A stretch of DNA of 63,265 nucleotides, the filler included. It is 4 parts of 4 records of this genome, joined end to end, with 100 filler letters (N's around TTAATTAATTAA, not from the genome) between each part and the next. Parts side by side here need not be neighbours in the genome. Positions count along the whole stretch, not along the records: positions 1 to 28,839 come from SRR22947725_1388; 3 more parts are not named here. One strand, 5' to 3'. The position numbers and the translations under genes are program-made. Position 1 is the first letter of the stretch. Every line of letters begins with the position of its first letter. Below, piece by piece: positions 2,945 through 44,278 of this stretch. The notes under the pieces are model-generated. The model was not told where the DNA came from. It made no database searches and saw only the letters and a list, made by a program, of their open reading frames with translations.

Positions 2945-4417
2945 TCAGCGCGGCATTATATAATTAAAACCAGAAAAGCTCTGGCCTTTCTCTTGTAGAA
3001 AGCCCTTCACTGCTTGACGACTATTAATCTGAATCTCGACGAACGCAACTTCCTTATTCTTGATAAGTTGACGTATATAAGGGAAACGGCCACCGCCACC
3101 AGCTGCCACCCTGCTGTTAATCGCCAGTCTATAGGAATTTTGTTCTTTTAAATCTAAGGATATCAATTCTCCCTGTTTATCAAGAATTAGCTTAAATCCA
3201 TACGGTTGATTGAAGTGAGGCTTTCCAAAGTACTCCATCTGCTCACGCATAATAGCCAATAACTGCTCTCTGGAAACCTGAAGTTGAAAAATATTATTCT
3301 CATAAGGAATGAGCTCAAAGAGATCTTCCTGAATAACTCTTCCCTCTAGGCTTTTATTTGAAAATTTGCCGTGAATAGCGATATCTGATTTCGAAGCATA
3401 GGTAAGAGCTGCACCAATTAAGGCAGCAGTCTGATTTTGCTTACCTGACTTACCCGAAATCAAGGGTACACCAGGTCCCTCTATAACAAGAGCCTCTTTA
3501 TAATCTTTAATTTTAGCTTGCCACTTTTGAGTTATACCTACTGCTCCTTGGTCAATAAGCTTCTCCTTTTCGACATCGATCAACCACGATGACAAGCGTG
3601 GCTTATGTCGACCATTTTTATCTAAGGTACACTCTACGACTCCCAAATGGGACGCATGAAAACCTGCTTGACAATAATACGTCCCATATATACTTCGTCC
3701 TGGATAAAACTGATGAGTATGTCCGCCTAACACAAGATCGAGTTGCGGGAATAAGCGAGTCACTTCGCGGATTTCATTTACTCCACGACTCTCAGAAAAA
3801 TTAAAGCCATGATGAAGAGCTAGGACAATCATATGCGGCCTTTGTAATTGTACTTCTTTAAGAATAGCGGGAAGGACGTCCACCACCTTTTGAACTTCAT
3901 AACCATCAAAATCTGCGCCAATAAACCAGTGCCTTAGAAAGCTAGCCTGCATACCAATAACTGCAATCTTCACCCCCTGTTTATTATAAATCTTATAGGC
4001 ATCAAAAGATCTTTTATAAGGGCTTTTCATGACAAAATTACCACTCAGAACCGGTACCCTGGTTAAATCCAGTAATTCATTCAATCTCTTGAGACCAAAG
4101 TCGAGCTCATGGTTACCAATAGCCCAAGCATCGTATTTTAGATAATTGATGTAATCCACAGCTATCTCGCCCTTGGTCGCCACAGCTGCCACCGAACCTT
4201 GAATCGTATCCCCACAATCGATAAGAAGCGTCGCTTCATTTCCCCATTGCTGTCGACACCGCTTTATTGAGCCGGCTAGTTTCTGCCAGCCCCCCTTATG
4301 TGTATTTATCTGACAATGGATGTCTGTAGTATGTAAAATTCGTATCTTTACTTCTTCTGCCACTAAGGCTCCAGAAAAAAGAAGAAAAAACACCGCCCTT
4401 TTGCAAAAATGTGCCAC
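2945..4417 (-). CDS. Bifunctional metallophosphatase / 5'-nucleotidase
   Basis: ILHTTDIH, IDCGDTIQGS, IGNHELDFG, LGGHTH, PYEN motifs; signal peptide. Confidence 0.88.
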   Translation of the reverse strand: MAHFCKRAVFFLLFSGALVAEEVKIRILHTTDIHCQINTHKGGWQKLAGSIKRCRQQWGNEATLLIDCGDTIQGSVAAVATKGEIAVDYINYLKYDAWAIGNHELDFGLKRLNELLDLTRVPVLSGNFVMKSPYKRSFDAYKIYNKQGVKIAVIGMQASFLRHWFIGADFDGYEVQKVVDVLPAILKEVQLQRPHMIVLALHHGFNFSESRGVNEIREVTRLFPQLDLVLGGHTHQFYPGRSIYGTYYCQAGFHASHLGVVECTLDKNGRHKPRLSSWLIDVEKEKLIDQGAVGITQKWQAKIKDYKEALVIEGPGVPLISGKSGKQNQTAALIGAALTYASKSDIAIHGKFSNKSLEGRVIQEDLFELIPYENNIFQLQVSREQLLAIMREQMEYFGKPHFNQPYGFKLILDKQGELISLDLKEQNSYRLAINSRVAAGGGGRFPYIRQLIKNKEVAFVEIQINSRQAVKGFLQEKGQSFSGFNYIMPR

Positions 4418-11076: not shown

Positions 11077-12144
11077 TTATGAAGTTCCACCAGATATAGC
11101 TTTAACAAAAAGCTCCAAGTAACGCCAAACCCCACTACCGCCATTAAGTGTAACAGCCCAATCTGAAATAAAAAATAATAAAGCTACTGCGACCATACTG
11201 TAGGAATAATAAGTAAAAACTTTACTTTTTTTCTTCCTCGCCTTTAGTCGCTGAAGAGCCCTCGCACGTCTCTTCTTATCCAAACTATAAGACTTTTTAT
11301 TTCCGGACTTAGATCTACCTGCTAACAAAGCCTCTATTTCGGCTATAATCTCCCCCCAATTAGCAAATCTATTCTGCGGGGACTTCTCAAGTAATTTACT
11401 TACAAACTCAGATACTGCCGCTGGCATCTTAGCATACACTCCGACATCTATAACCGCCTTACCTAAGTGCTGCTGCAAAATCAACCGATAATCATTACCC
11501 TCAAAAACAGGCTTACCTGAAAGCATATGGTAAAGAGTCGCTCCGAAACTATAGATATCTGCCCTAAAGTCACCGACCTGCCAAGTTCCATTAATAACTT
11601 CTGGAGCTGCATAATAAGGCGTTAGCATAATATCCTGATTCTTGACTTCACCCCCCAAACAAGCCAAACCTAAATCTGCCAGCTTCACTTCGCCCTTATG
11701 AGTAATAACAATATTAGCCGGCTTTATATCTCCATGTGTCAGCGCACGAGTTCGGACACCATAATCAAGAGCTTCGGCAATCTTCTTTAACCACTCTAAA
11801 CTTTGTCTCCAAGGCAGCTTTCCATGCTCTTTAATCTTCATTGAGACATCTTCGCCTTCGACCAACTCCATAGAAAAATAAAAATGGTCCGAATCGGCAT
11901 GACCGACATCATAAGCTCTTATAATATTGGGATGAGTTAATTGAGCTACTGTCTGAGCTTCGTGAAAAAACATATCTACATAGGATTTATCACGCGCTAA
12001 CTCTTCAGACAAAACCTTTAAAGCCACAGCTCGCTTCAAGCTCTCCTGAATGGCATAAAAAACCTTCCCCGTATTACCGTGCCCTATTTCACAAATTAGT
12101 TCGTACCCGCCCAATTGAATCTTATCAATAACATCCGTCGTCAT
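11077..12144 (-). CDS. Hanks-type Ser/Thr kinase (non-RD) with C-terminal TM anchor
   Basis: IGHGNTGKV, VALK, HGDIKPAN, DLG, YAAPE, DIYSFG; basic linker then hydrophobic helix. Confidence 0.9.
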   Translation of the reverse strand: MTTDVIDKIQLGGYELICEIGHGNTGKVFYAIQESLKRAVALKVLSEELARDKSYVDMFFHEAQTVAQLTHPNIIRAYDVGHADSDHFYFSMELVEGEDVSMKIKEHGKLPWRQSLEWLKKIAEALDYGVRTRALTHGDIKPANIVITHKGEVKLADLGLACLGGEVKNQDIMLTPYYAAPEVINGTWQVGDFRADIYSFGATLYHMLSGKPVFEGNDYRLILQQHLGKAVIDVGVYAKMPAAVSEFVSKLLEKSPQNRFANWGEIIAEIEALLAGRSKSGNKKSYSLDKKRRARALQRLKARKKKSKVFTYYSYSMVAVALLFFISDWAVTLNGGSGVWRYLELFVKAISGGTS

Positions 12145-12327
12145 ACGCCACCTCAATTCTGTTCCATCAAAAAGGATACGGAATTAAAGCCCTAACTCTT
12201 ACAGATTTGCAACAGAAAACACCAACTAAATGAACTTTTTAGACTTTCTTTCACTTTTCTGTAAACTCTTACGAGAGAAGATGCTTCGCCACAAGATTAT
12301 TTCCTTTTATCGACAGCTCTCAAGGAC

Positions 12328-15833: not shown

Positions 15834-16868
15834 ATGGAAATCTCTTTTAGATGCCCCTCATGTAGAGTAAAATTAGGCGTCGAAGTCAAGTATGCAGGCA
15901 GATCTATGTACTGCCCAAGATGTGAAGAAAAGGTCACTATACCCAATGCGGGTTTAGGCACTTGGACGACTCTTGGCGAATACCGCCTCCAAAAGGTTGT
16001 CGGTGAAGGTACTACTGGCTCTGTATACTTAGCTCAAGACCGGAATATGGAGCGTGAAGTAGCAGTCAAAGTCTTTAAGCCAGAGTTAACTAACGACCCG
16101 ATTTTTCTAAAGAAATTTCTTCATGAAATAAAAATTATTGCACGATTAGCACACCCCAATATTGTTACGGCCTACAAAGCCGGCCAAGATCACCAATATC
16201 ATTACCTTGTTATGGAGTACATCTCTGGCGGTACACTTGAGGATAGGGTTATCCGCCACGGTCACATAGATGAAAAGGATGCCCTCAAAATAACTTTATT
16301 GACTGCTCAAGCCCTCGATTATGCCTGGCATAAAGAAAAACTACTCCACCTTGATCTAAAGCCTGAGAATCTCATGCTCGACCAAAATGGCAGAGTTAAA
16401 ATTACCGACCTCGGTATCGCCAGATGCCTCAAAGACTTTGATTATGAGCATAACAATGAAATAACCGGCACACCAGCATTCATGAGCCCAGAACAAGCTT
16501 CAGGACAACACCCTCTCGATATCCGATCCGACCTCTTTTCTTTGGGAGGCACCCTCTACTTCATGCTGACTGGTGAGATGCCTTTTGGCACCGCGGATGT
16601 CAAAGAAACAATTAACAGAGTTAAGCAACAGAAGCTTACCAACCCTCAAGAGCATAACAACTTAATCTCTGACAATACCGTTCGCCTTATTAATAAAATG
16701 ATGGCCAAAGATAGAAGTTTTCGCCATCAGACTTGGGGTGAGCTCATACAACAACTCAAAGAAGAGTTAAAATCTGAGCCCCATGACAAGAAGCTTACTA
16801 TTCGCAAGCACCCTACAGAGCCACGCATTCGCTTAAAAACTTCAAAGCAAAAGAATGACAGCAACTGA
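15834..16868 (+). CDS. Zn-ribbon Ser/Thr kinase (soluble, non-RD)
   Basis: CPSC..CPRC N-terminus; VGEGTTGSV, VAVK, HLDLKPEN, DLG, GTPAFMSPEQ. Confidence 0.9.
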   Translation: MEISFRCPSCRVKLGVEVKYAGRSMYCPRCEEKVTIPNAGLGTWTTLGEYRLQKVVGEGTTGSVYLAQDRNMEREVAVKVFKPELTNDPIFLKKFLHEIKIIARLAHPNIVTAYKAGQDHQYHYLVMEYISGGTLEDRVIRHGHIDEKDALKITLLTAQALDYAWHKEKLLHLDLKPENLMLDQNGRVKITDLGIARCLKDFDYEHNNEITGTPAFMSPEQASGQHPLDIRSDLFSLGGTLYFMLTGEMPFGTADVKETINRVKQQKLTNPQEHNNLISDNTVRLINKMMAKDRSFRHQTWGELIQQLKEELKSEPHDKKLTIRKHPTEPRIRLKTSKQKNDSN

Positions 16869-16911
16869 TTTCTTAACTTTACACTTAGCGCTACCCGCAG
16901 TATCGTTACCT

Positions 16912-17523
16912 ATGGAAACGAAAGATACTAATAAAAATTTTGATCAAACAAAATACCATGAGCTAGAGATACTCAAAACTGTTGACGAAGATTCACAGCT
17001 AAACAATCGTAAGGCCGCCAACAAATTGGGCGTAAGTGTGAAATTGGCTCATACGACGCTCAACCGCATGGTTGAAAAGGGCTTACTTAACATAAAAAAA
17101 GAGAACTCTCGAAAGTGGCATTATTTCCTAACACCTCAAGGAATTCTTGAGAAAGCGAAATTAACTGTATCTTTTTTTGAATTTTCTATGCAGTTTTACA
17201 AAGAGGCACGAAAGCTGAGTGCTATGTTATGTAGAAAACTATCAGAGGAACAACAAAAGCGCGTCGTTTTGCTAGGGCATGGAGAATTAGCAGAGATCAC
17301 CTATCTTGGTATCCAGGAATGGAATCTTGATTTGGTAGATGTCATTTCAATCGACAATGAAGAAAAGAATTTCATGGGGCTAACAACAAAATCTATTAAC
17401 GAAAGTATCGCTGATCACGATGCTATGATTATTTGTACTTATGACCCAAGCCGACCAACTGGTGCACACTTCTTGCCTGATGGTGTTGTAAGTAACGACA
17501 AAATGCAATGGATTTTCCAATAG
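16912..17523 (+). CDS. MarR-type winged-helix regulator (EPS-associated type) with Rossmann-like C-terminus
   Basis: NRKAANKLGVSV...YFLTPQGILEKAKLT; VVLLGHGELAEI; start moved to ATG 16912. Confidence 0.75.
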   Translation: METKDTNKNFDQTKYHELEILKTVDEDSQLNNRKAANKLGVSVKLAHTTLNRMVEKGLLNIKKENSRKWHYFLTPQGILEKAKLTVSFFEFSMQFYKEARKLSAMLCRKLSEEQQKRVVLLGHGELAEITYLGIQEWNLDLVDVISIDNEEKNFMGLTTKSINESIADHDAMIICTYDPSRPTGAHFLPDGVVSNDKMQWIFQ

Positions 17524-17556: not shown

Positions 17557-18951
17557 ATGACAGCTCTAATAATTGACGATGATCCAATAATACTGGAAAC
17601 AATTCCAGATTTACTAGAACTACTCGATTTTGACACTCAAGCTTTTAAGAATCCACTCGAAGGCCTCAAATATGTTGAAACTGAAAGACCAGAGCTCATC
17701 TTCTGTGACTTAAGTATGCCTCAAATGAGTGGGCTCGATGTCCTCAAAAAAGCCAAAGAACTTCACCCTGATGCAATTTTCATAGTCATGACTGGCTTCG
17801 CCAGTATAGAATCCGCCGTAAATGCCATGCGCATGGGAGCGGCAGATTACATACAAAAGCCTTTCACCATGGACCATCTTAGACTAATAGTCAAAAGAGC
17901 TCTTATGGAAAAACAACTGAGACAAGAAAATCGCGAACTAAAAGCAAAATTAACTGACAGATATAAATTTGACCATGTAATTGGCAAAAGTGCTGCCATG
18001 CAAAAAATATTTGCTCAAATTGAAAAAGTCGCGCCCACCAATGCGAGTGTTCTCATTCACGGAGAAAGCGGTACTGGCAAGGAAATGATTGCCAGAGCAA
18101 TACACGCGTATTCCCTCCGTAAAGAGAACCCTTTTGTCGGAGTCGACTGCGTCTCCATCCCAACCCACTTATTAGAAAGTGAACTCTTCGGCTATGAAAA
18201 AGGGGCCTTTACTGGAGCCAATGGCCGACGTTCCGGACTTTTTGAGTCTGCCGAAAAAGGCACATTCTTTATGGATGAAGTAACAGAAATCGACTATGAC
18301 GTTCAAGCAAAATTATTAAGAGTTCTGCAAGAAAGACAATTTCGAAGAGTTGGCGGCAGAGACTTAATCAATGTGGATACACGAGTATTAGCCGCCACCA
18401 AAAGAGATCCTCTCCAAGCAGTTCATGATAGAATTTTTAGAGAAGACCTCTACTACAGACTCAACGTAATTCCAATTGAACTACCGTCACTAAGAGAACG
18501 CAAAGAAGATATCCCTCTTCTTGTACAGCACTTTATGAAGGGGTCAGCTGCACTGACAAATTCAACAGAACAGGTTAAGATTGAAAGCGATGCTCTTAAT
18601 GCGCTTATTGGCTACGACTGGCCAGGTAACATTCGCGAATTAAAAAATATCATTGAACGCTTGTGCATCATGGCTTCTGACAGCATTATCACACTTGAAG
18701 ATATTCCCAATGAAATTCGAGGAGCCAAAACTAATTTCACCATGGACATATCGTGGGGTGATGAACTTTCCTTTAAAGACGCCAAAGAAAGATGGGTTGA
18801 ACACTTCGAAAAAGACTTTCTCGAAAAAGCACTCAAAAAACATAGCGGCAACATTTCTAAAGCAGCGGAAAACTGTGGTGTTAACCGCCGAACATTTCAT
18901 CGCTTAATGAGCAAATATGAACTCGGAAACTTTCGAGATTACCGCAACTAA
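17557..18951 (+). CDS. Sigma-54-dependent response regulator (NtrC/AtoC family)
   Basis: Receiver (DDD, CDLSMP, KPF), GESGTGKE, GAFTGA, FREDLYYRL, Fis-type HTH. Confidence 0.95.
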   Translation: MTALIIDDDPIILETIPDLLELLDFDTQAFKNPLEGLKYVETERPELIFCDLSMPQMSGLDVLKKAKELHPDAIFIVMTGFASIESAVNAMRMGAADYIQKPFTMDHLRLIVKRALMEKQLRQENRELKAKLTDRYKFDHVIGKSAAMQKIFAQIEKVAPTNASVLIHGESGTGKEMIARAIHAYSLRKENPFVGVDCVSIPTHLLESELFGYEKGAFTGANGRRSGLFESAEKGTFFMDEVTEIDYDVQAKLLRVLQERQFRRVGGRDLINVDTRVLAATKRDPLQAVHDRIFREDLYYRLNVIPIELPSLRERKEDIPLLVQHFMKGSAALTNSTEQVKIESDALNALIGYDWPGNIRELKNIIERLCIMASDSIITLEDIPNEIRGAKTNFTMDISWGDELSFKDAKERWVEHFEKDFLEKALKKHSGNISKAAENCGVNRRTFHRLMSKYELGNFRDYRN

Positions 18952-19049: not shown

Positions 19050-19616
19050 ATGAAATTTTTCTTAATAGGCGCTGCTGGATTTTTACTTTTTCTATTTATC
19101 GGTGGATGCGGCACAATAATGCTACACAACGGCTTAGTCACAGCCGAAGAAAGTGTAGATGAAAAATGGGCTGAAATAGACAATATGCTCAAACGCAGAG
19201 CTGACCTTATACCCAACTTAGTAGAAACCGTTAAAGGCTTTGCCGCTCAAGAAAAAGAAATTTTTATCGCAGTCGCCGAAGCACGTTCAAAACTAATTGG
19301 TGCGAAAGGAACTAAAGATAAAGCCAATGCTGCAGGAATGATGAATTCAGCACTTTCTAGGCTTCTCGCTATTTCTGAGAGGTATCCAGACCTAAAGTCC
19401 AACCAGAACTTCCTTCGGCTCCAAGATGAATTAGCCGGCACTGAAAACCGCATAGCAGTTGCAAGAACTCGCTATAACGATTCGGTCAAATCTTTTAATA
19501 GCAAAATTAGAAAGTTCCCCCACTCAATGATTGCAGGCTTCAAAGGCATGACCAAAAAAGACTACTTTGAAATCATCAACGAAGCTGATAAAGAAACACC
19601 TAGCGTAAAATTCTAA
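19050..19616 (+). CDS. lemA: LemA family protein
   Basis: RRADLIPNLVETVKG, ERYPDLKSNQNFLRLQDELAGTENRI. Confidence 0.93.
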   Translation: MKFFLIGAAGFLLFLFIGGCGTIMLHNGLVTAEESVDEKWAEIDNMLKRRADLIPNLVETVKGFAAQEKEIFIAVAEARSKLIGAKGTKDKANAAGMMNSALSRLLAISERYPDLKSNQNFLRLQDELAGTENRIAVARTRYNDSVKSFNSKIRKFPHSMIAGFKGMTKKDYFEIINEADKETPSVKF

Positions 19617-20047
19617 TGGCTAAATTCCTAACCCCACTAGTCAAAAAAACGCTATCTCTAGCTATTGCTCAAGCGGAGAAAATCACTTCTGCTGAAATTG
19701 CTGTATGTGTTTGCAAGAAAAGTAAAGGTGACACATACGCCGCAGCTCAAGAATTCTTTAACAAAAAAGAACTCTACAAAACCAAAGAGCGAAATGCCGT
19801 ATTAATCTTCTTAGCCTACAACGACAAAAAATTAGCCATCTTGGGTGATGAGGGCATAAATAATAAAGTCCCTGATAATTTCTGGAATGATACCATAATA
19901 CTGATTACCCAGCAATTTAAAAAAGGTGACTTTTCAGAGGGGCTCAAACAAGGAATCGATAAAATCGGCCAAGAACTAGCACAATACTTTCCATGGGACG
20001 AAAATGATGAAAATGAGATTGATAATGAAATACATATCCAAGACTAG
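19616..20047 (+). CDS. TPM domain protein
   Basis: AEKITSAEI.V, TKERNAVLIF, AILGDEGIN; lemA context. Confidence 0.85.
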   Translation: MAKFLTPLVKKTLSLAIAQAEKITSAEIAVCVCKKSKGDTYAAAQEFFNKKELYKTKERNAVLIFLAYNDKKLAILGDEGINNKVPDNFWNDTIILITQQFKKGDFSEGLKQGIDKIGQELAQYFPWDENDENEIDNEIHIQD

Positions 20048-20765
20048 TATATTCCTCTTATTATTCTCTGTACTAATCACTAGTGCAACGGCTCAAACTA
20101 TCATCGACAAACCCGCCAAAGTCATGGACTATGGCAAACTCTATTCAAAGCATGAGAAAAACCTCCTAAAACTACTCCTTGGCCAGTTTCAGAAAAAAAC
20201 CAAGGCCGAAATGTTTATCCTCACAGTTGAAAAGCTCGACAAGGAAACAATTGATGACATAGGCATACGCTTAATCGATCACTGGAATAAAAAAGATCTC
20301 GCCCCAGGAGATAAAGAAAGAGATGATGGACTCTTATTCATTATATCAAAAAAAGATCGCAAGATGCGACTCGAAGTCGGCCAAGGCCTTGAAGGTAAAA
20401 TCACCGACCATAAAGCCGGAAATATCATACGGCTCCTCCCTGAATATTTCAAAAAAGGTGATTTCTATGGAGGGACTGCCAAGGTAATTGAAGAATCCGC
20501 AAAAATCATCAACGGCAGCACACTCTCCTACCCCAAAGACACATCCCAAAGTAGTCAAAGCAAAAAAGAGAAGAAGCGAAGTCCCCTATTCGTTATCTTT
20601 ATAATTCTCCTGATAATATCATCATTCTTCAATAATCGACGTGGAGGCGGCATTTACATTAGGACAGGAGGTTTCTCTGGTGGATTCTCTGGTGGCGGTG
20701 GTGGCGGATTCTCCGGTGGTGGAGGTGGCGGGTTCTCTGGTGGAGGTGCTTCAGGAGGCTGGTAA
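20025..20765 (+). CDS. TPM domain (YgcG-like) membrane protein with Gly-rich tail
   Basis: DDGLLFIISKKDRKMRLEVGQGLEG..TD; TM; GGFSGGG...GGASGGW tail. Confidence 0.88.
   Translation: MKYISKTSIFLLLFSVLITSATAQTIIDKPAKVMDYGKLYSKHEKNLLKLLLGQFQKKTKAEMFILTVEKLDKETIDDIGIRLIDHWNKKDLAPGDKERDDGLLFIISKKDRKMRLEVGQGLEGKITDHKAGNIIRLLPEYFKKGDFYGGTAKVIEESAKIINGSTLSYPKDTSQSSQSKKEKKRSPLFVIFIILLIISSFFNNRRGGGIYIRTGGFSGGFSGGGGGGFSGGGGGGFSGGGASGGW
20667..20762 (+). repeat. Low-complexity GGFSGG coding repeat
   Basis: Four GGFSGG units (ttctc(t/c)ggtgg) within the TPM protein tail. Confidence 0.75.
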
Positions 20766-21266
20766 CTAATCTAAATTCTTTTGATTATCTTCTGGCATAT
20801 CAAAAGTCTCTTTTTGCTGAGGCTGATCATCCTTGTATTGAGTTTGTCTATCAAAAGGTTCCGCTCCAGGCATGTTCGAATGAAAACTAAAATGACTCGC
20901 CCCGCTAAAACTCTTACCCTTGACAATTTTTGACAAAAGAGGGCTAATTAACCTTCTCACTGGAGGCACAAGCAAAAGAAAGCCAAATACATCAGTCAAA
21001 AAGCCAGGAGTAATAAGCACTACAGCTGCAACCAAAATCATTAATCCTTCAAGAATCGGATGACCTGGCATTTTTCCCTGGGACAATTCTCGCTGAAATA
21101 ATAGTAAATGCTCTCGCCCTTGCTGCTTGGCTATACTTATTCCTAGAAAGCCTGTGAACAATACCATCAGCAAAAGGTTGGGGTAGCCAATGCGCTCCGC
21201 AACTTCTTTCATCAAGAAAACTTCTGCAATAGTCGTTAAAACAAAAAATAATAAGAATTTAGACAT
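20766..21266 (-). CDS. fxsA: FxsA family membrane protein
   Basis: LITPGFLTDVFGFLLLVPPVR. Confidence 0.88.
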   Translation of the reverse strand: MSKFLLFFVLTTIAEVFLMKEVAERIGYPNLLLMVLFTGFLGISIAKQQGREHLLLFQRELSQGKMPGHPILEGLMILVAAVVLITPGFLTDVFGFLLLVPPVRRLISPLLSKIVKGKSFSGASHFSFHSNMPGAEPFDRQTQYKDDQPQQKETFDMPEDNQKNLD

Positions 21267-21382
21267 CTGTTTTAAAAATACTTAAATTGTATGTTAATCA
21301 TTTGAGCTTAATATATGCAAAGGAACTTGCAAGTCTATGGCTAAAATAAGTATCATACATTTAAATAACTCAGGGAATATTT

Positions 21383-22765
21383 GTGCGTTTTCAATGCAGT
21401 CATTGTGATCAAATTGTATCAGTAAGTGATTCGGACATCGGATCTGTTGTTAGCTGTGGGCACTGTAACGCCCAGGATAGAGTCCCAAATGGACGTTTTT
21501 CACCAAGAATTGTCATCAACGATTACGTTATCATTAAAAAAATTGGCGTTGGACGACTTGCCTCCGTTTACCTCGCACATCAAATCACACTTGACAGAAA
21601 AGTTGCCCTAAAAATCCTTTCACAAGAACTTGCTGATGACAGTGACTTCATTATTGACTTTTTTAAAGAAGCCCGAAGCGCTGGACGCCTCAATCACCCT
21701 AACATTGTGCAAGCCTACGCCGTAAATGAAGAGGATGGCATTTACTACCTTGTCATGGAGTACATTGAAGGTAAGAACCTAAAAGAAATCATCGAGGAAG
21801 AAGGATCATTATCCTATGAGTACTCATTGAGAATAATCCATCAAATTGCTGAAGCCCTTTCATTTATCTGGAAGAATCACAAAATCTGCCATGAGAATGT
21901 TAAACCGGAAAACATCCTTCTGACCCAAACGAAAGCTGCCAAGCTTAGTGATACCGGCCTATCTAAGGCTTCGAGAAGATTAGATTCTTCTACACCTTAT
22001 ATATGTCCAGAAAAGATATTAAGCTCCAAAAGCGACATTCGTTCAGACCTCTATAGCCTAGGTATCACCTTCTATGAAATGCTTACCGGCTTCCCTCCTT
22101 TCGAAGGAAGTAAAGAAGAGATCCGTAAGCAACATCTCAAAGCTACTCCTCCTCCCCTAAAAGACTTTCGACAAGATGTCCCCGAAAGCTATGTCCGAAT
22201 TATTGATAAACTACTAGCAAAGCATCCGGATGATCGCTACCAAAATCCCGATGGCCTACTTAATGATATTAAATTAGCACGTGTTGCCAAAAGCGAAAAA
22301 AATATTCGCAAAGTCGAAAAAGAAAAACAAAAAAGAAATTTAAAGGCCGCAAATGCGAGTGTCAGCTCTAAAAATAGCTTCCTACAAATGAGCATTGTCC
22401 TAAATATCATTTTACTTGTAACTATTCTTTTACTTATGTCTGGCCAAACACAAGTTTCTGTAGTACCCCAGAAAGAAGAAGTCAGTAATGACCAAATTCT
22501 GATTTACCATCAAATAGCCACTGACATGAATACGGGTGATTTAACTCAGCAAAGATCAGAAAGTATACTAGAAGAAATCAATGAGTTTCTTAATCGCTTT
22601 CCTGACAGTCCCCACCTCCCTATTGCTATGCATTGGAAGAATAATTTAGAAGAAGCCATCATTCGATCAAAAAGATTTGAAGCTTGGGATAAAGAGCATA
22701 CTGAAGCTAAAGAAACCAAGAAGCTTTCAAACATTGCTGAAAGAGAATTAAAGAAAAAGAAATAA
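21383..22765 (+). CDS. Zn-ribbon Ser/Thr pseudokinase with TM and extracytoplasmic domain
   Basis: CSHC..CGHC; VALK intact, but HENVKPEN (no catalytic Asp), DTG and GVGRLA; TM IVLNIILLVTILLLM. Confidence 0.8.
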   Translation: MRFQCSHCDQIVSVSDSDIGSVVSCGHCNAQDRVPNGRFSPRIVINDYVIIKKIGVGRLASVYLAHQITLDRKVALKILSQELADDSDFIIDFFKEARSAGRLNHPNIVQAYAVNEEDGIYYLVMEYIEGKNLKEIIEEEGSLSYEYSLRIIHQIAEALSFIWKNHKICHENVKPENILLTQTKAAKLSDTGLSKASRRLDSSTPYICPEKILSSKSDIRSDLYSLGITFYEMLTGFPPFEGSKEEIRKQHLKATPPPLKDFRQDVPESYVRIIDKLLAKHPDDRYQNPDGLLNDIKLARVAKSEKNIRKVEKEKQKRNLKAANASVSSKNSFLQMSIVLNIILLVTILLLMSGQTQVSVVPQKEEVSNDQILIYHQIATDMNTGDLTQQRSESILEEINEFLNRFPDSPHLPIAMHWKNNLEEAIIRSKRFEAWDKEHTEAKETKKLSNIAERELKKKK

Positions 22766-22922
22766 ACCGTACCTTTATTATCTGAGAAGATCCAAATATG
22801 GTTTTTTCTCAAATTTGATAAATTAAATCAAAAAGGTATTTTTTTTGAAATTAACACTATCCCTTTAGGGTTTAAGTGTTAGAGTTTTAGCAATTTTTAA
22901 CTGATGGGTAAAGGCAAATATC

Positions 22923-24236
22923 GTGCGATTCCAATGTATTCATTGCCATGGACTTGTAGCTATTGATGATAGCGAGCAAGGTGAACATGTAGGTTGCGGT
23001 CACTGTGACGAAGTCGTTCAGGTTCCCGACTCTAAATTTGCGCCACAGGGCGTAATCGACGATTTTGTCATTGAAAACATGCTTGGCCGTGGTGGCATGG
23101 GTATAGTTTACAAAGCTCATCAGATGTCTCTCGACAGACCAGTCGCGCTAAAGATTCTAATGAACCAATACGCGACTGATAATGACTTCATCATTGACTT
23201 CATTCGTGAAGCAAGAGCAGCAGCTCGCCTAAACCACCCATATATCGTTCAAGCTTACGCCGTCGGTCAAGATGAAAGTACATACTTTTTAGCGATGGAA
23301 TATGTTGAAGGTCAAACCATGAAACAAATCATGGATGTTGATCGTACAGTTCCTCTCGAATTCGCCCTAAATGTCACAGCCCAAGTTGGTGAAGCTTTAG
23401 GCTTTGCTTGGAGCGAACAGAAACTCATTCACAGAGACATCAAGCCTGATAATATCATGATCACTGCAGATAATGTTGCTAAGCTCATGGACCTAGGTCT
23501 CTCTCGTTTTGATAATGACAAATTAGCTGATACCGAAGACGAAGATGAAGTTATGGGCACTCCTCAGTACATATGTCCAGAACAGCTGATTGGTATGCCA
23601 ATGGATGTCCGTGGTGATCTTTATAGCCTTGGTGCAACTCTCTACCATGCGATCACTGGCGAATTCCCTTTCAATGGTAGAAATGCTGCTGAAATTGCCA
23701 AAAAGCATTTACAAGAACCACTGACTCCGGCAAATGTCCATAACCCAAGTATTCCACCATCTGTCTGTAAGCTTATTGAGAAAATGATGGCAAAGCATCC
23801 CGATGACCGTCATGCATCGACAGCTGATCTAATTAAAGAAATCAATCAGATCAAAAATAGCTTGACTGGCTCAAAGAGAACCCCAAAATCAAAATCTCAG
23901 CCAATCAAGATTAAGCCAGGCACGAAAAGTAAAGGACCAACAAAGTCCCCAACGGCATCTGCTAAAAATAAAGCAGGAGGTCGCTCCGGATCATTCAAAA
24001 AATCTAGAACGAGCTCAAAAGGACCATCAACTACCAATAAAAATAAAACTGTTACACGCAACACCAAGCGAACTGTATCTTCTCGTAATCTTGGAGAAAC
24101 AAAGCGCGCCTCTAACAGAAATAGCAAAATGCCCGCAGAAGGAAAATACAGTAATACAGAAAACTCCGCCATGAAATTTGGGGCCATTGGAGTTTTTGTT
24201 GTATTCATCGTTATGGCAATTGTCGTCTCTCTGTAA
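22923..24236 (+). CDS. Zn-ribbon Ser/Thr kinase (RD type) with basic Ser/Thr-rich tail and terminal TM
   Basis: CIHC..CGHC; LGRGGMGIV, VALK, HRDIKPDN, DLG, GTPQYICPEQ. Confidence 0.92.
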   Translation: MRFQCIHCHGLVAIDDSEQGEHVGCGHCDEVVQVPDSKFAPQGVIDDFVIENMLGRGGMGIVYKAHQMSLDRPVALKILMNQYATDNDFIIDFIREARAAARLNHPYIVQAYAVGQDESTYFLAMEYVEGQTMKQIMDVDRTVPLEFALNVTAQVGEALGFAWSEQKLIHRDIKPDNIMITADNVAKLMDLGLSRFDNDKLADTEDEDEVMGTPQYICPEQLIGMPMDVRGDLYSLGATLYHAITGEFPFNGRNAAEIAKKHLQEPLTPANVHNPSIPPSVCKLIEKMMAKHPDDRHASTADLIKEINQIKNSLTGSKRTPKSKSQPIKIKPGTKSKGPTKSPTASAKNKAGGRSGSFKKSRTSSKGPSTTNKNKTVTRNTKRTVSSRNLGETKRASNRNSKMPAEGKYSNTENSAMKFGAIGVFVVFIVMAIVVSL

Positions 24237-24243
24237 TCACTAA

Positions 24244-25056
24244 ATGAAAATACTTCATTTCTCCGATATCCACACTGGCGGCAAGTTCTCGTCCATCAAA
24301 GCTCTTTTTGATAAGCGAATTATTGGTACACTCAACTACAAGTTGCGCCGCAAAAGACATGTCCATTGGGAACGCCTGGAAAGGGCTATAGATATCATAA
24401 AAGAAGAAAAGCCTGATTACGTAATTAATACCGGTGACATAAGCTCTGTAAGCGAACCGGCAGAATTTGCGGAAGCACTCGAACGACTGAAACCTCTTAT
24501 CGAAGACCAGTCTTTTAAGTTCTTAAACATACCTGGGAATCACGATTACTACACCCATAACAACAATTGTCTACAAAGTCGCAATAGTACCTTCCTCCAA
24601 CTCAACAGAGGGCTACACAAACTAGAAGACTTCCCCCTTAAGATTGAAGAAGACGACGCCACCTTTATTCTCGTTGATGAAAGTCGACCGAATCCTGGCA
24701 CTTTATCTAGTGGAATCCTAAAAGAAAGCTCACTTAAAAAGATCTCTAATTGGACTGAAAAAGCCCAACAAAAACCAATCATTTTCCTCGGCCATTACCC
24801 CCTCCTCGATAAGCTGGGTCAACCCCTAGCGGAAAGGCGCTGCCTCGAAAACTCAGAAGCTCTTCTTGAGATATTGGAAAATGGGAAAATTAACGTTACC
24901 TTATGCGGGCACATTCACTCTGCCTTTAGTAGAACACACAGTTCAGGCTCTATGGAAGTATGTGCAGGCTCCCTTACTATCGGGGGAAAGATGAATAAAT
25001 TAGAATATGATAAATCGACTAAGAAGTTCACACAAAGCTGGATCGATTTAAGATAA
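24244..25056 (+). CDS. Calcineurin-like metallophosphoesterase (CpdA/Icc-like)
   Basis: HFSDIH, TGD, PGNHD, GHYP, CGHIH. Confidence 0.88.
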   Translation: MKILHFSDIHTGGKFSSIKALFDKRIIGTLNYKLRRKRHVHWERLERAIDIIKEEKPDYVINTGDISSVSEPAEFAEALERLKPLIEDQSFKFLNIPGNHDYYTHNNNCLQSRNSTFLQLNRGLHKLEDFPLKIEEDDATFILVDESRPNPGTLSSGILKESSLKKISNWTEKAQQKPIIFLGHYPLLDKLGQPLAERRCLENSEALLEILENGKINVTLCGHIHSAFSRTHSSGSMEVCAGSLTIGGKMNKLEYDKSTKKFTQSWIDLR

Positions 25057-25068
25057 AAAAAGTTTTTT

Positions 25069-26580
25069 ATGTACTACCCAAAGCTAAAAGAAGTAAAAGA
25101 CCTGGCCCAGCAAGGAAATTACATCCCTATCTACTGCGAAGTTCTCGCTGATATGGAAACTCCAGTTTCTGCCTTCCACAAAATTGCCTATGACGAACAA
25201 GGCAACAAACAACCTTATGCATTTTTACTAGAAAGTGTCGAAGGCGGTGAAAAAATTGGCCGTTTTTCATTTCTTGGGTGCGACCCTATTTATCTCTTCA
25301 AACAAAATGGCCCAAAAGCTGAAATTACTCATAATGGAACAGTCATCGAAGAAATGGAAGGTGATTGCGCTTTCACAGGTCTACAAAAGTTCCTCAAGAA
25401 ATTTAAACAAGTTAAGATTGAAGGCCTCGCACCTTTCAATGGAGGCGCCGTTGGTTACGCCTCTTTTGAAACAATCGAACAGATAGAACCCAAAGTTAAA
25501 TGCCAGAAAGAAGATGGCCTTGATGTACCAGATGCTATTTTTCAAATTACCGATAGCCTCATTGCCTTTGATCGCGTCAAACATACAATGCAAATAATTA
25601 GCCATGTCGATTTAACCAATGGCGAGGATATTGACGCTGCTTATCAAAAAGCTACTGATAAAATAGACGGCATCCTGAATAAGCTCCATAAACAACCAAA
25701 CCTTCCGCCACTCAGAGCCCTAAAAACTGGGGAGCCCCTCTCTTGCACATCAAACATGAGCAAAGATGAATTCAAATCAATGGTTAAAACTGCCAAAGAC
25801 TACATCTTAGACGGTGATATAATCCAGGTTGTTCTATCCCAGAGATTTGAAGCCGATCTTGATCTATCCCCACTACAAGTTCATAGAGCACTAAGAACAA
25901 TCAATCCATCACCATACATGTACTGCCTTCACTTGGGGGATGACTTTTCAATCACCGGCACATCACCAGAAATACATGCTCGCTGTATAGATAAAGAAAT
26001 TACCGTACGACCAATTGCCGGCACCAGAGTTCGAGGCAAAGACGCCGCTGAAGACCAAGCCCTAGCTGACGAATTATTAGCGGACCCAAAAGAAAGAGCC
26101 GAACACATCATGCTCGTAGACCTTGCTCGTAATGACGTTGGCCGCATCTCAGAAACAGGCTCTATTGAAATCCCTGACCTTATGACAATTGAAAAATACA
26201 GCCATGTCATGCATATTGTCTCTGATGTTACTGGTAGGCTGAAAGAAGACCTACCAAGCAGTGAAACTATGAGCTCTACATTCCCAGCAGGAACTGTGTC
26301 TGGAGCCCCAAAAATTCGCGCTATGCAAATTATTGCCGAACTAGAAAAAAGCAGACGTGGGCCTTATGCAGGAACCATTGCTTATTTTTCTTTTGATGGC
26401 AATATCGACTCGTGTATCACCATTCGCACAGTCATTATGAAAGATAAAAAAGCTTATATACAGGCAGGTGCCGGAGTCGTTGCAGACTCAGACCCTGAAT
26501 TTGAATTTGAAGAAACTCGCAATAAGGCAAGAGCCATGATGGTAGCCTTAGGCGCAGCTAAAGAAATGTCACAGTTTTGA
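25069..26580 (+). CDS. trpE: Anthranilate synthase component I
   Basis: FLLESVEGGE, NPSPYM, PIAGT, KERAEHIMLVDLARND, FPAGTVSGAPK. Confidence 0.93.
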   Translation: MYYPKLKEVKDLAQQGNYIPIYCEVLADMETPVSAFHKIAYDEQGNKQPYAFLLESVEGGEKIGRFSFLGCDPIYLFKQNGPKAEITHNGTVIEEMEGDCAFTGLQKFLKKFKQVKIEGLAPFNGGAVGYASFETIEQIEPKVKCQKEDGLDVPDAIFQITDSLIAFDRVKHTMQIISHVDLTNGEDIDAAYQKATDKIDGILNKLHKQPNLPPLRALKTGEPLSCTSNMSKDEFKSMVKTAKDYILDGDIIQVVLSQRFEADLDLSPLQVHRALRTINPSPYMYCLHLGDDFSITGTSPEIHARCIDKEITVRPIAGTRVRGKDAAEDQALADELLADPKERAEHIMLVDLARNDVGRISETGSIEIPDLMTIEKYSHVMHIVSDVTGRLKEDLPSSETMSSTFPAGTVSGAPKIRAMQIIAELEKSRRGPYAGTIAYFSFDGNIDSCITIRTVIMKDKKAYIQAGAGVVADSDPEFEFEETRNKARAMMVALGAAKEMSQF

Positions 26581-26587
26581 GGAAATA

Positions 26588-27598
26588 ATGAAAATCGACT
26601 GGAATAACCTCGGCTTTGAATATATGGACACCAAATGCCATGTTCGCTACACTTACAAAAACGGCCAATGGGATAATGGCGAAATCGTCAATGATCCACA
26701 TCTAAACCTACATATTGGAGCTACAAGCCTTCATTATGGGCAGGCCTGCTTTGAAGGCCTTAAAGCTTTCCGTGGACAAGACGGTAAAGTTCGCATTTTT
26801 CGACCAGATGAAAATTCTAAAAGAATGAATTCGTCTGCACGCCGCACCCTTATGGCTGAAGTACCAGAAGATATTTTTATCAAGGCCATAAAAACTGCAG
26901 TAAAAGAAAATGAAGAATACATCCCTCCTTACGAATCAGATGGTGCTCTCTACATAAGACCACTTCTCATCGGCTCTGGCCCAAGAATAGGTATACAACC
27001 TTCTGAAGAATACACATTCATCGTCTTGGTAATACCAGTCGGCAACTATTACAAAGGTGGACTCAAGCCCGTAGATGGTATTATTGTCGATGGTTATGAT
27101 AGAAGTGCACCTGGTGGTACAGGCAATGTCAAAGTTGCCGGAAATTATGCCTCTAGCTTAGAGCCAGGTAAAATCGCCAAAGATAAAGGCTTCCCCATCA
27201 ACCTTTACCTAGACTCGAAAGAACACAAATATATAGACGAGTTTGGCACCTCTAACTTCATTGCCATCAAAGGTAATACATACATCACGCCAGAGTCAGA
27301 AACTATACTACCGAGCATTACCAACAAAAGCCTGATGACCATTGCCGAAGACATGGGCATGAATACAGAAAGAAGACCTGTAGAATTCACAGAAGTACCA
27401 GATTTTGATGCCGTAGGAGCCTGTGGCACCGCCGTAGTTATTACTCCTGTCGATAAGATTTATCACGGTAATGAAGTAGCTCAAATTGGTGACGGCACCG
27501 TCCATAGTAAACTCCACGAACTCTATGATAAGATGACTGCCATTCAGCGTGGTACTACTGAAGATCTCCACAATTGGTGCGTCGTCCTCGATGACTAA
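26588..27598 (+). CDS. ilvE: Branched-chain amino acid aminotransferase
   Basis: LHYGQACFEGLKA, LYIRP, KVAGNY, ILPSIT, CGTAVVITPV. Confidence 0.94.
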   Translation: MKIDWNNLGFEYMDTKCHVRYTYKNGQWDNGEIVNDPHLNLHIGATSLHYGQACFEGLKAFRGQDGKVRIFRPDENSKRMNSSARRTLMAEVPEDIFIKAIKTAVKENEEYIPPYESDGALYIRPLLIGSGPRIGIQPSEEYTFIVLVIPVGNYYKGGLKPVDGIIVDGYDRSAPGGTGNVKVAGNYASSLEPGKIAKDKGFPINLYLDSKEHKYIDEFGTSNFIAIKGNTYITPESETILPSITNKSLMTIAEDMGMNTERRPVEFTEVPDFDAVGACGTAVVITPVDKIYHGNEVAQIGDGTVHSKLHELYDKMTAIQRGTTEDLHNWCVVLDD

Positions 27599-28370
27599 TC
27601 ACAAACTTGATTACAAAACCCCAGAAACGAGCTCACGCTCTTTTTGGGATATTTTATTCAGACCATTTAACCTATATTTTTATTCACGCTCTATACACTC
27701 CATAGTTAGCTGCGCCAAATACATGAAGCGCGATGACTACTATGACTATTTTATCAAGCACTGTGGCAAAATCTTAGAAGGTGTAGAAGCGACTGGTGCC
27801 AAAGTGGAAATCTCTGGATTAGAGAACGTCCCCAAAGAACCATGCGTCATTATCGGCAATCACATGAGTACCCTTGAAACCATTAGCTTGGGCCACTCCC
27901 TAAGAGATAGAACACAAATATCTTTTGTCATTAAAGAAAGCCTCATGAAATACCCCTATTTTAGAGATATCCTTCAACGGCTTGAGTGCATAACGGTAAC
28001 TCGCACCAATCCTATCCACGACTTAAAGAAAATACTTAGAGAAGGTCCTGCTTTACTCGAAAAAGGACGATCTATAGTAGTATTTCCTCAACACACTCGT
28101 GGGCAATATGACCCTAGTGATTTTAGCTCTATTGGCTGCAAGCTTGCCAAAAGAGCCAAAGTTCCAGTCGTTCCTCTAGCGCTCGACACTCGATTATGGG
28201 GTAAAGGAAAAATCGTCTCAGATCTTGGGCCGGTCAATCGCGACATTCCCGTACGCTACTCATTTGGAGAAGCAATGGTCATTGATAAAAATGAAAAAGA
28301 AATTCACGCAAAATGCCTAGACTTCATAGGTAGTAGATTGCAAGAATGGAATGCCTATTCACCCCAATAA
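27591..28370 (+). CDS. plsC: Lysophospholipid acyltransferase (PlsC family)
   Basis: NHMSTLE, FVIKESL, VVFPQHTR; start moved to ATG 27591. Confidence 0.8.
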   Translation: MTNHKLDYKTPETSSRSFWDILFRPFNLYFYSRSIHSIVSCAKYMKRDDYYDYFIKHCGKILEGVEATGAKVEISGLENVPKEPCVIIGNHMSTLETISLGHSLRDRTQISFVIKESLMKYPYFRDILQRLECITVTRTNPIHDLKKILREGPALLEKGRSIVVFPQHTRGQYDPSDFSSIGCKLAKRAKVPVVPLALDTRLWGKGKIVSDLGPVNRDIPVRYSFGEAMVIDKNEKEIHAKCLDFIGSRLQEWNAYSPQ

Positions 28371-28839: not shown

Positions 28840-28939
28840 NNNNNNNNNNNNNNNNNNNNNNNNNNNNNNNNNNNNNNNNNNNNTTAATTAATTAANNNNN
28901 NNNNNNNNNNNNNNNNNNNNNNNNNNNNNNNNNNNNNNN
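28840..28939. other. Artificial contig spacer
   Basis: 44 N + TTAATTAATTAA + 44 N. Confidence 0.98.
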
Positions 28940-34698: not shown

Positions 34699-34798
34699 NN
34701 NNNNNNNNNNNNNNNNNNNNNNNNNNNNNNNNNNNNNNNNNNTTAATTAATTAANNNNNNNNNNNNNNNNNNNNNNNNNNNNNNNNNNNNNNNNNNNN
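34699..34798. other. Artificial contig spacer
   Basis: 44 N + TTAATTAATTAA + 44 N. Confidence 0.98.
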
Positions 34799-43087: not shown

Positions 43088-43187
43088 NNNNNNNNNNNNN
43101 NNNNNNNNNNNNNNNNNNNNNNNNNNNNNNNTTAATTAATTAANNNNNNNNNNNNNNNNNNNNNNNNNNNNNNNNNNNNNNNNNNNN
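43088..43187. other. Artificial contig spacer
   Basis: 44 N + TTAATTAATTAA + 44 N. Confidence 0.98.
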
Positions 43188-43245
43188 ACATATAAGTTGC
43201 CCTAAAGTTGTGTTGTAGTAAATCGGGCAAAGGCCCGATTTTTTT
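43188..43245 (+). promoter_or_regulatory. Candidate attenuator in the leader of the aro operon
   Basis: Terminator aaatcgggc-aaag-gcccgattt plus U-run (43220-43245); alternative pairing ttgccc (43197-43202) with gggcaa (43225-43230); SD aggag follows. Confidence 0.6.
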
Positions 43246-43259
43246 ATTTAGGAGAAAAA

Positions 43260-44276: not shown

Positions 44277-44278
44277 AT

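Follow-up and report, generated by a model that had tools for sequence, protein, structure and literature searches.

Three adjacent genes in a 63,265-nucleotide stretch of DNA (hereafter, the window), which joins four contigs by spacers, encode two related kinase-like proteins, K1 and K2, and a metallophosphoesterase (MPE). Here, we report that K1 (positions 21383–22765, + strand) is a conserved membrane pseudokinase whose loss of activity is predicted from its residues, and that the active-type kinase K2 (22923–24236, +) and the MPE (24244–25056, +) are co-conserved as an old operon pair. The locus would then consist of two units of different age, namely K2 with the MPE, and K1. In this bacterial family, K2 has lost an extracytoplasmic domain, and its final 19 residues serve as its only anchor in the inner membrane. 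The K1 clade has lost the Asp of the HRD motif and has kept the VAIK Lys, the C-helix Glu, the catalytic-loop Lys and Asn, and the DxG Asp, which together make up the ATP/Mg pocket, along with a periplasmic helical module. K1 itself may be non-phosphorylating, a nucleotide-binding conformational partner of an active Zn-ribbon kinase that passes on a periplasmic or envelope cue by dimerisation of one kinase domain with another, and the MPE would hydrolyse a phosphodiester or nucleotide-type substrate in the K2 pathway. We consider a conserved and selected K1 without its catalytic base, a co-conserved K2–MPE pair and a non-catalytic role for K1, taken together, slightly better than an even bet; this estimate excludes any partnership between K1 and K2, which is weighed on its own below.

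K1 is a conserved pseudokinase with predicted loss of activity

The open reading frame (ORF) of K1 begins with GTG and encodes a bitopic protein of 460 aa comprising a predicted Zn ribbon, a Hanks-type pseudokinase domain, a transmembrane (TM) segment and a short helical ectodomain. Pfam Pkinase (PF00069) matched it at 159.5 bits (cut-off 31.7), placing it in the Hanks-type fold. Its catalytic loop, HENVKPEN (21890–21913, +), starts at residue 170 and carries Asn172 in place of the HRD Asp; VALK lies at residue 74 and DTG at residue 190, and the stretch from DxG to PE spans 21 residues versus 31 in K2. The initial annotation, made from the sequence of the window, had described K1 and K2 as adjacent paralogues with a common GTG-RFQC..C start, followed by the MPE. 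The ORF calls bore out the coordinates and the adjacency of all three genes, and the paralogy is evident from 45% identity over 311 aa (E 6e-99). That annotation had also listed the catalytic hallmarks missing from K1. The loss of the HRD Asp, together with the HRD Arg, and the shorter activation segment stand, whereas the other two hallmarks were over-read: the metal-binding Asp is still present in DTG, and two of three glycines remain in the G-loop GVGRLA.

A protein search with K1 recovered 22 orthologues (P0001–P0022) at 50–81% identity, all with open frames and full-length or nearly so. Asn occupies the HRD-Asp position in every one of them (HEN in 19, HGN in two and HDN in one), within a loop that reads H[E/G/D]N[IV]KPEN in 22 of 22. 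Across a 20-sequence K1 alignment with a mean column identity of 71%, N172, K77, E96, K174, N177 and D190 are invariant, and the VAIK Lys is kept in 20/20 of these sequences and in 16/16 of the clade set. When a pseudokinase is defined operationally by the conserved loss of the VAIK Lys, the HRD Asp or the DFG Asp, K1 qualifies through the HRD Asp.

We then considered the family to which the locus belongs. The closest proteins to K1 and K2 are labelled “Lentisphaeraceae bacterium” or “Lentisphaerales bacterium” at NCBI, and the locus-bearing organism is a Lentisphaeraceae bacterium. Eight genomes (G106–G113) represent the family; they were reached through loci from a scan of genome contigs and through a search of the class, which gave K1 orthologues in G109 and G110. 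Seven of the eight encode a K1-like protein. The catalytic-loop motif is HEN in G109 and G110, HQN in G106 and G108 (proteins of 680–681 aa), and HLS or HLA in G111–G113 (695–722 aa); in the K1-like proteins of the last five genomes, the relative position of the TM segment is unchanged, but the ectodomain is larger than that of K1. In the sister protein P0023 the loop reads HHRMIPDC, and in the wider K1 clade the HRD-Asp position is held by Asn, Ser, Ala or Arg. A quick maximum-likelihood tree of 74 rows, from which the fragments P0018, P0020 and P0021 were omitted, placed 30 rows in a K1-type clade (SH-aLRT, approximate likelihood-ratio support, 96), apart from a K2 clade of 12 rows (96); it carried a long-branch warning inside the pseudokinase clade, and the relation between the two clades was not resolved as that of sisters.

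The clade looks narrow, at approximately family level, by a count that rests on the best 150 matches of a profile search over 1.84 billion representatives: three of these were clade members (P0009, P0026 and P0241). Among 137 new representatives, 50 had an N-terminal CxxC...CxxC, and the 46 in which the catalytic loop was found all keep the Asp; the loop pattern gave no match in the remaining four. Scanning genome contigs with the K1 alignment yielded no K1 orthologue among the matches listed (best 47% identity), and a scan of metagenome contigs yielded none either (best 41% identity). The class-wide K1 search scored four candidates per genome and so cannot show absence of K1 outside the family.

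Selection on K1 was assessed from the window, G109 and G110, where the nonsynonymous divergence (dN) was 0.21–0.22 for K1, 0.12–0.16 for K2, 0.27–0.28 for the MPE and 0.27–0.35 for the neighbouring gene FxsA; synonymous divergence (dS) was saturated or not computable, so these values stand as dN and not as dN/dS ratios. Because its dN lies between the values of K2 and the MPE, K1 is constrained to much the same degree as its neighbours and is under purifying selection. We had looked for orthologues that retain HRD and for relaxed selection, and saw neither, given Asn in 22/22 and a dN below that of the MPE and FxsA. The proposed D-to-N substitution is thus conserved among the orthologues, and the whole clade is without the Asp.

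In the N-terminal Zn-ribbon-like CxxC...CxxC of K1 (21383–21490, +; C5, C8, C25 and C28), C25 and C28 do not vary across the 20 aligned sequences, at least 90% of which also retain C5 and C8, and an AlphaFold2 (AF2) model forms four short strands over residues 2–33 (predicted local distance difference test, pLDDT, 68–82). K1 and K2 both begin MRFQC..C...CGHC with the spacing CxxC-16-CxxC. A Pfam scan of the two proteins gave zero matches to Zn-ribbon families; precomputed matches to PF13717 and PF13719 exist for two homologues, P0152 and P0157. The MRFQC..C start is common to many K1 relatives.

The TM segment (residues 333–351; 22379–22435, +; hydropathy 2.59 over 19 residues) is the single hydrophobic segment of K1 and has the same position in the G109 and G110 orthologues. 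It is followed by an extracytoplasmic module of ~109 aa (22436–22762, +), which AF2 modelled as three helices at residues 369–459 (pLDDT 82–92). By BLASTP, the ectodomain of the G109 orthologue matched the G112 K1-like protein at 5.8e-8, and the short K1 ectodomain is homologous to the stretch nearest the membrane in the larger K1-like ectodomains. A TM segment with an extracytoplasmic helical domain had been predicted for K1 and is confirmed by these data; the label “TPR/BamD-like” attached to that domain is without Pfam support, as a search of residues 353–460 at E up to 1 gave no family at cut-off and listed none of the TPR families.

The older unit: K2 paired with the MPE

K2 starts with GTG and encodes a tail-anchored, active-type Zn-ribbon Ser/Thr kinase of 437 aa. 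Pfam Pkinase matched it at 160.1 bits (cut-off 31.7), and its motifs HRDIKPDN, DLG and VALK occupy positions matching those of K1. A basic Ser/Thr/Lys-rich linker follows (residues 310–415; 20 K, 19 S, 14 T and 10 N among 106 residues), and the C-terminal TM anchor (residues 419–437; 24177–24233, +; hydropathy 2.88) ends the protein. Motifs and hydropathy thus agree with the earlier description of K2 as an intact kinase with a Lys/Ser/Thr-rich tail, a terminal TM segment only and no sensor.

This anatomy is general in the family. All 19 K2-type sequences in the alignment have the catalytic residues and the C-terminal hydrophobic tail with nothing after it, and the four Cys are conserved. Ten MPE-linked kinases of other families, by contrast, place a TM segment at 383–584 and continue for another 118–436 residues, and their ectodomains are homologous to each other. 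Since 19/19 family sequences end in the tail, whereas the orthologues outside carry ectodomains, family K2 is a receptor kinase that lost the ectodomain its orthologues still carry elsewhere. Between K1-type and K2-type ectodomains, BLASTP found no match at E 0.01, and hhalign returned a probability of 16–25% over 50 columns.

Only 7 nt separate the MPE from the K2 stop codon, as had been noted at the outset. In 8/8 family genomes, the two genes are same-strand neighbours that overlap by up to 4 nt or lie up to 7 nt apart, and they are adjacent at a further locus (L024) too, with a 4-nt overlap. To cover the class, 20 of 150 listed MPE places were sampled, 17 of them for upstream contig and spread and three for long open frames (L214, the same place as L026, was counted once). 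In 10 of the 20 sampled class genomes, a K2-like Zn-ribbon kinase with 49–54% identity to K2 lies directly upstream of the MPE on the same strand; among the other ten loci, a contig end truncates L221, and the remaining nine are without an upstream kinase. K2 and the MPE are therefore an old, tightly coupled and co-conserved operon pair. The initial annotation had treated the three genes as one module; co-conservation holds for K2 and the MPE, in the family and across the class, and K1 is not part of that unit.

A tentative link between K1 and K2

The initial annotation had further proposed that K1 is a sensor pseudokinase controlling a partner kinase. K2 is the first candidate for that partner because the two genes are adjacent in one lineage, because a complex prediction gave a weak signal and because their anatomies are complementary, K1 being a sensor without the base and K2 having the base without a sensor. 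Even so, we rate a K1–K2 partnership as doubtful.

Direct adjacency of K1 and K2 is limited to the window, G109 and G110. For another five K1/K2 pairs, the longest contigs are of identical size (66821, 72511, 68272, 65245 and 8226), which suggests that their K1 and K2 genes share a contig. One of these pairs involves the most divergent orthologue, P0019, which is 54% identical over the K1 alignment and apparently shares the 8226-bp contig with the K2-type protein P0132, so that adjacency would reach far into the orthologue group. For the complex prediction, K2 residues 1–315 and K1 residues 1–305 were modelled with alignments, and the pair scored 0.48 versus 0.00 for the best of three controls, a result classed as “weak support”; the runs agreed in at least 95% of contacts, with a partner pLDDT of at least 85. 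The multimer check suggested with the annotation was thus positive, at a low level. Of 80 solved complexes, 58 reach the mark applied, as do 2 of 110 mismatched pairs; just 7 of the 80 complexes reached it at 0.60 or below, in which range both passing mismatches fell as well.

Several points weigh against the interpretation that we favour. ATP binding and inactivity of K1 are inferred from residues only; its N-lobe is poor in the single-chain AF2 model (pLDDT below 50 at residues 39–126), although K1 reached a pLDDT of 85 in the complex model and, for that reason, we read no biology into the poor N-lobe. In G107, no K1-like protein was found at E 1e-70. At 9 of the 19 informative loci in the sample, the MPE lies beside no kinase, and it occurs in 334 of 351 genomes of the class of G042; its function is for these reasons independent of the kinase. 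With respect to the partnership, the K1-like gene is not beside K2 in G106, G108, G111, G112 and G113: in G112 it sits next to genes for a WaaP-like kinase, a GT4 glycosyltransferase and a methyltransferase, and in G106 next to those for Ham1 and a 3D-domain protein. Where K1 and K2 do adjoin, the whole block K3–wHTH–NtrC–FxsA–K1–K2–MPE–TrpE–IlvE–PlsC–HPr (wHTH, winged helix-turn-helix) is syntenic in G109 and G110, and the adjacency may be plain synteny. Two adjacent kinases are not rare, given that kinases abound both in these genomes (50–143 candidates in each) and on the 29-kb contig, which carries four. K2 and the MPE are probably transcribed from their own promoter, judging from a conserved gap and a promoter-like site upstream of K2. 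Finally, a score of 0.48 lies in a band that is more often wrong than right unless the partnership is likely beforehand; kinase-domain dimers have been solved, so a pass may reflect likeness, and near relatives of a true partner likewise reach the mark. The complex prediction adds little to the pairing.

The gap between K1 and K2 (22766–22922, +) deserves a closer description. It is 157–164 nt long in the window and its relatives (L124:9863-10025 and L125:9049-9212, in G109 and G110), with a mean column identity of 77% across the three genomes despite saturated dS in the flanking genes. A promoter-like site at 22815–22842 matches 9 of 12 positions, in a scan that ran near background (17 promoters found versus 9.4 expected; 4 terminators versus 3.0 expected), and the scan showed no terminator-like site in the gap. 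The spacer elements include TTGA[GT]A...TTTTTT, a near-palindrome, GCTAAAGTTTTAGC, which is perfect in G109, and TGATGGGTAAAGGC, which precedes the start codon.

In one alternative, K1 is a pseudokinase independent of K2, acting as a membrane scaffold or sensor for another of the many kinases or for envelope or lipopolysaccharide (LPS) proteins, with the adjacency an accident of gene order. We regard this as a serious contender, if on balance improbable. It would account for an adjacency confined to one sublineage and for the different settings elsewhere, where the K1-like gene follows Ham1 (G106 and G108) or WaaP-like and GT4 genes (G112 and G113); the sheer number of kinases per genome, the conserved upstream region of K2 with its promoter-like site and a K1 clade that the tree does not resolve as sister to that of K2 fit it as well. 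It sits less easily with the apparent adjacency in P0019, with the weakly positive complex prediction and with the loss of the K2 ectodomain, seen in the one family to yield the pseudokinase clade in our searches. In G112 (L126:6329-12080), and likewise in G113 (L128), genes for a WaaP/Kdo-kinase-like protein, a GT4 protein, the pseudokinase (HLS), an overlapping methyltransferase and an aquaporin lie on the same strand, and the arrangement hints at an envelope or LPS link of the pseudokinase in these two genomes.

Returning to a partnership of K1 with K2, its most specific form would be a split receptor. An ancestral Lentisphaeria receptor kinase with a Zn ribbon, kinase domain, TM segment and ectodomain, coupled to the class-wide MPE, would have been divided in Lentisphaeraceae between K1, as the sensor, and K2, as the catalyst; K2 would have kept catalysis and the MPE link, the K1 clade a periplasmic module and a kinase domain that binds ATP but has no base, and K1 would switch K2 on or off through heterodimerisation of the kinase domains. 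Such a pair would be the bacterial equivalent of HER3/HER2-type receptors. Among the families examined, the loss of the K2 ectodomain and the K1 clade are both found only in Lentisphaeraceae, and a division of sensing and catalysis between paralogues fits, since K2 is without an ectodomain where the pseudokinase clade occurs. We nevertheless judge this scenario unlikely. What speaks for the proposed control of K2 by a sensor pseudokinase is gene adjacency within a single sublineage together with a weak complex signal; against it, K1-like genes lie elsewhere in five genomes.

The MPE most likely acts on a phosphodiester or nucleotide-type substrate

The MPE ORF encodes a cytoplasmic dimetal phosphoesterase of 270 aa that is GpdQ/Rv0805-like, has no hydrophobic segment and carries a family-specific basic insert, FDKRxIGxxNYxLRRK. 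Pfam Metallophos (PF00149) matched it at 77.4 bits (cut-off 21.5), assigning it to the superfamily. Among 11 sequences, the metal-ligand and motif residues D8, H10, D65, N99, H100, H184, H223 and H225 are invariant, and the insert, which lies between motifs I and II, is conserved at F22, K24, R25, G28, N31, Y32, R35 and R36; the AF2 model has a pLDDT of 87.3, with low confidence in the insert. In Foldseek, the top matches were GpdQ, Rv0805 and Lmo2642 (E 3.6e-14 to 2dxl, the value for GpdQ, and 9.7e-14 to 2hyp), followed by purple acid phosphatases, Mre11 and SMPDL3. A phmmer comparison with GpdQ gave 8.3e-6 at 19% identity, all NCBIfam matches fell far below their cut-offs, and the ESM Atlas returned “calcineurin-like phosphoesterase” clusters only. 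With a profile built from the 11 sequences, the MPE was found at E 1e-30 in 334 of 351 class genomes, mostly in single copy and with two matches in two of them.

One alternative is that the MPE is the cognate protein phosphatase, or “eraser”, of K2, in the manner of PP2C beside PknB/PrkC. Bacterial Hanks kinases typically share an operon with a phosphatase, and the close coupling to K2 in 8/8 family genomes, the kinase–MPE adjacency in 10/20 sampled class genomes and the intact catalytic metal ligands are all as expected of such an enzyme. Structure and motifs point elsewhere: the nearest structures are phosphodiesterases, and no PPP-type Ser/Thr phosphatase was among the best 50 Foldseek matches. 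PPP phosphatases are marked by GDxHG, GDxVDRG and GNHE, against SDIHTGG, TGDISS and GNHD in the MPE, which places it outside the PPP family. Moreover, the gene is near-universal in the class and does without an adjacent kinase at nearly half of the informative loci. The role of eraser suggested in the initial annotation is weakened accordingly, though not excluded; we think it rather improbable. A plain cyclic-nucleotide phosphodiesterase was also looked for: the CpdA model (NF008359, PRK11148) scored 36.6 bits against a cut-off of 225, so that membership of the CpdA family is not indicated, yet the fold is nearest to Rv0805 and GpdQ. The class-wide MPE family is most likely a phosphodiester or nucleotide-type hydrolase in the K2 pathway, as a target or output of K2, and a protein phosphatase of K2 is less likely.

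Two other interpretations of the MPE were rejected. A role as LpxH or LpxG is unnecessary because LpxI is present: the MPE had no LpxH match, and among five family genomes, the LpxH model TIGR01854 (the only one of the two scored) matched in 0/5, with LpxI and LpxB in 5/5 each. Apparent kinase–MPE fusions in open frames of 1074 and 663 aa proved to have Arg-rich, non-genic frames upstream, with the MPE starting at its usual MKIIHFSD.

Residual activity or decay of K1

A reading that concerns K1 alone is that it keeps low kinase activity despite the Asn, with slow auto- or trans-phosphorylation. Low activity has been reported for some eukaryotic Asp-to-Asn pseudokinases (HER3 and JAK2 JH2); K77, E96, K174, N177 and D190 are all invariant in the K1 alignment, and two K1 orthologues carry HGN, the motif of JAK JH2. 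The position of the HRD Asp is, however, filled by Ser, Ala or Arg in sister subclades, so no chemistry is fixed there, and the K1 activation segment is 10 residues shorter than that of K2; we hold residual activity to be quite unlikely. That K1 is merely a decaying, functionless duplicate of K2, as its missing Asp and shorter activation segment might suggest, is contradicted by its conservation (22 open-frame orthologues, 71% mean column identity, and dN below the MPE and FxsA) and by the age and separateness of its clade, leaving this reading with almost no probability.

Genomic context and source of the locus

Two further kinases lie on the same contig. K3 (15834–16868), a third Zn-ribbon kinase of 344 aa with HLDLKPEN and no TM segment, overlaps by 14 nt a winged-helix gene (16855–17523), which is followed by an NtrC-type sigma-54 activator (17557–18951); this trio is kept in G109 and G110. 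K4 (11077–12156, − strand) is a fourth Hanks kinase, of 359 aa, with no Zn ribbon at the start of its Pfam match. Between NtrC and FxsA, the window carries a LemA–TPM–TPM cassette (19050–20765), for which no match was found at the same place in G109 and G110, where FxsA follows NtrC directly. A second, unrelated metallophosphoesterase with a 5′-nucleotidase C-terminal domain is encoded at 2945–4417 (− strand). PADLOC matches (PD-T4-6 and mad6) were set aside as evidence of defence, being generic kinase-domain matches with no defence context nearby. In G106–G113, the 50–143 candidates per genome obtained at first look with K1 as query look like a large lineage-specific expansion of Zn-ribbon kinases.

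The contigs of the window, separated by N runs at 28840–28939, 34699–34798 and 43088–43187, are from different organisms, and piece 1–28839 alone represents the organism that bears the locus. The GC content falls from ~0.40 in the first contig to ~0.31 past 28 kb. Positions 20000–28000 had zero DNA matches in G001, the “nearest” genome (~1.1 Mb), and positions 43188–45000, the tested stretch of the last piece, are 100% identical to it; the source assembly looks like a mixed bin. Relatives of G001, with genomes of ~1 Mb and at best 37% identity to K1, were set aside as kin of another window piece, since G001 matches that piece and not the locus contig.

Comparison with known systems

The closest functional parallels to K1 are eukaryotic. 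In HER3, Asn replaces the HRD Asp, and the plant pseudokinase co-receptor pair EFR–BAK1 is reportedly another allosteric example. Like K1, the pseudokinases of HER3–HER2/EGFR and of plant co-receptors have the HRD Asp replaced and keep the Lys, the Glu and the DFG Asp, and those of the HER3 type are single-pass membrane proteins with an outside domain and an intact paralogue in the same cell. K1 differs in being bacterial, in its predicted N-terminal Zn ribbon and in an ectodomain of ~109 aa that belongs to no known family. K2 has no ectodomain, the pairing at this locus is a prediction, and no common descent links the systems beyond the protein-kinase fold.

Bacterial Ser/Thr pseudokinases have been catalogued in the families ActPs1–3 (including MviN of M. 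tuberculosis), GLW, CP1, DYD and DLHK (PMC12599244). MviN is described as a scaffold, and the families include membrane proteins (PMC12599244; bioRxiv 10.1101/2025.01.12.632604). Substitution of the VAIK Lys is given for all seven families, affecting part of CP1 (34%) and DYD (60%) and every member elsewhere, and most of the families are described as also lacking the DFG Asp (bioRxiv 10.1101/2025.01.12.632604). The K1 clade resembles them as a bacterial Hanks domain with a degraded catalytic motif that is conserved as a family. It differs by description, as K1 keeps the Lys (20/20 and 16/16) and the DxG Asp and loses the HRD Asp only; with K77 invariant, K1 falls outside ActPs1–3, GLW, CP1, DYD and DLHK, an assignment made by description and not by profile score. 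The main texts of the two sources do not mention Lentisphaer-, Planctomyc-, PVC or zinc (PMC12599244; bioRxiv 10.1101/2025.01.12.632604), and bacterial pseudokinases are portrayed as almost untested (PMC12599244). Among the matches listed in our literature search, there was no bacterial pseudokinase–kinase receptor pair.

The K1 clade is distinctive in that it is receptor-like and membrane-bound, has lost only the catalytic base, retains a full nucleotide pocket and is well conserved; in one lineage, the gene next to K1 encodes a sister kinase that no longer has a sensor domain. If K1 and K2 work together, allosteric pseudokinase–kinase receptor pairs would have arisen in bacteria too, and the two proteins would offer a small system for studying the allosteric mechanism.

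K2 in turn resembles PknB/PrkC, with a cytoplasmic Hanks kinase domain, a flexible juxtamembrane linker, one TM segment and a translationally coupled downstream phosphoesterase. It is set apart by a predicted Zn ribbon, a tail anchor, a coupled calcineurin-like MPE in place of PP2C and the lack of PASTA repeats: the best NCBIfam model, PknB_PASTA_kin (NF033483), scored 270.2 bits for K1 and 306.1 for K2 against a cut-off of 450, matching the kinase part only. The MPE, for its part, shares the fold and all dimetal ligands with the class III phosphodiesterase-type enzymes GpdQ, Rv0805 and CpdA, and departs from them in its 19% identity, its conserved basic insert and its kinase-linked gene. The class-wide pairing of kinase and MPE is a finding separate from the pseudokinase, and it suggests that the Hanks kinases of Lentisphaeria have an output or partner enzyme not described so far.

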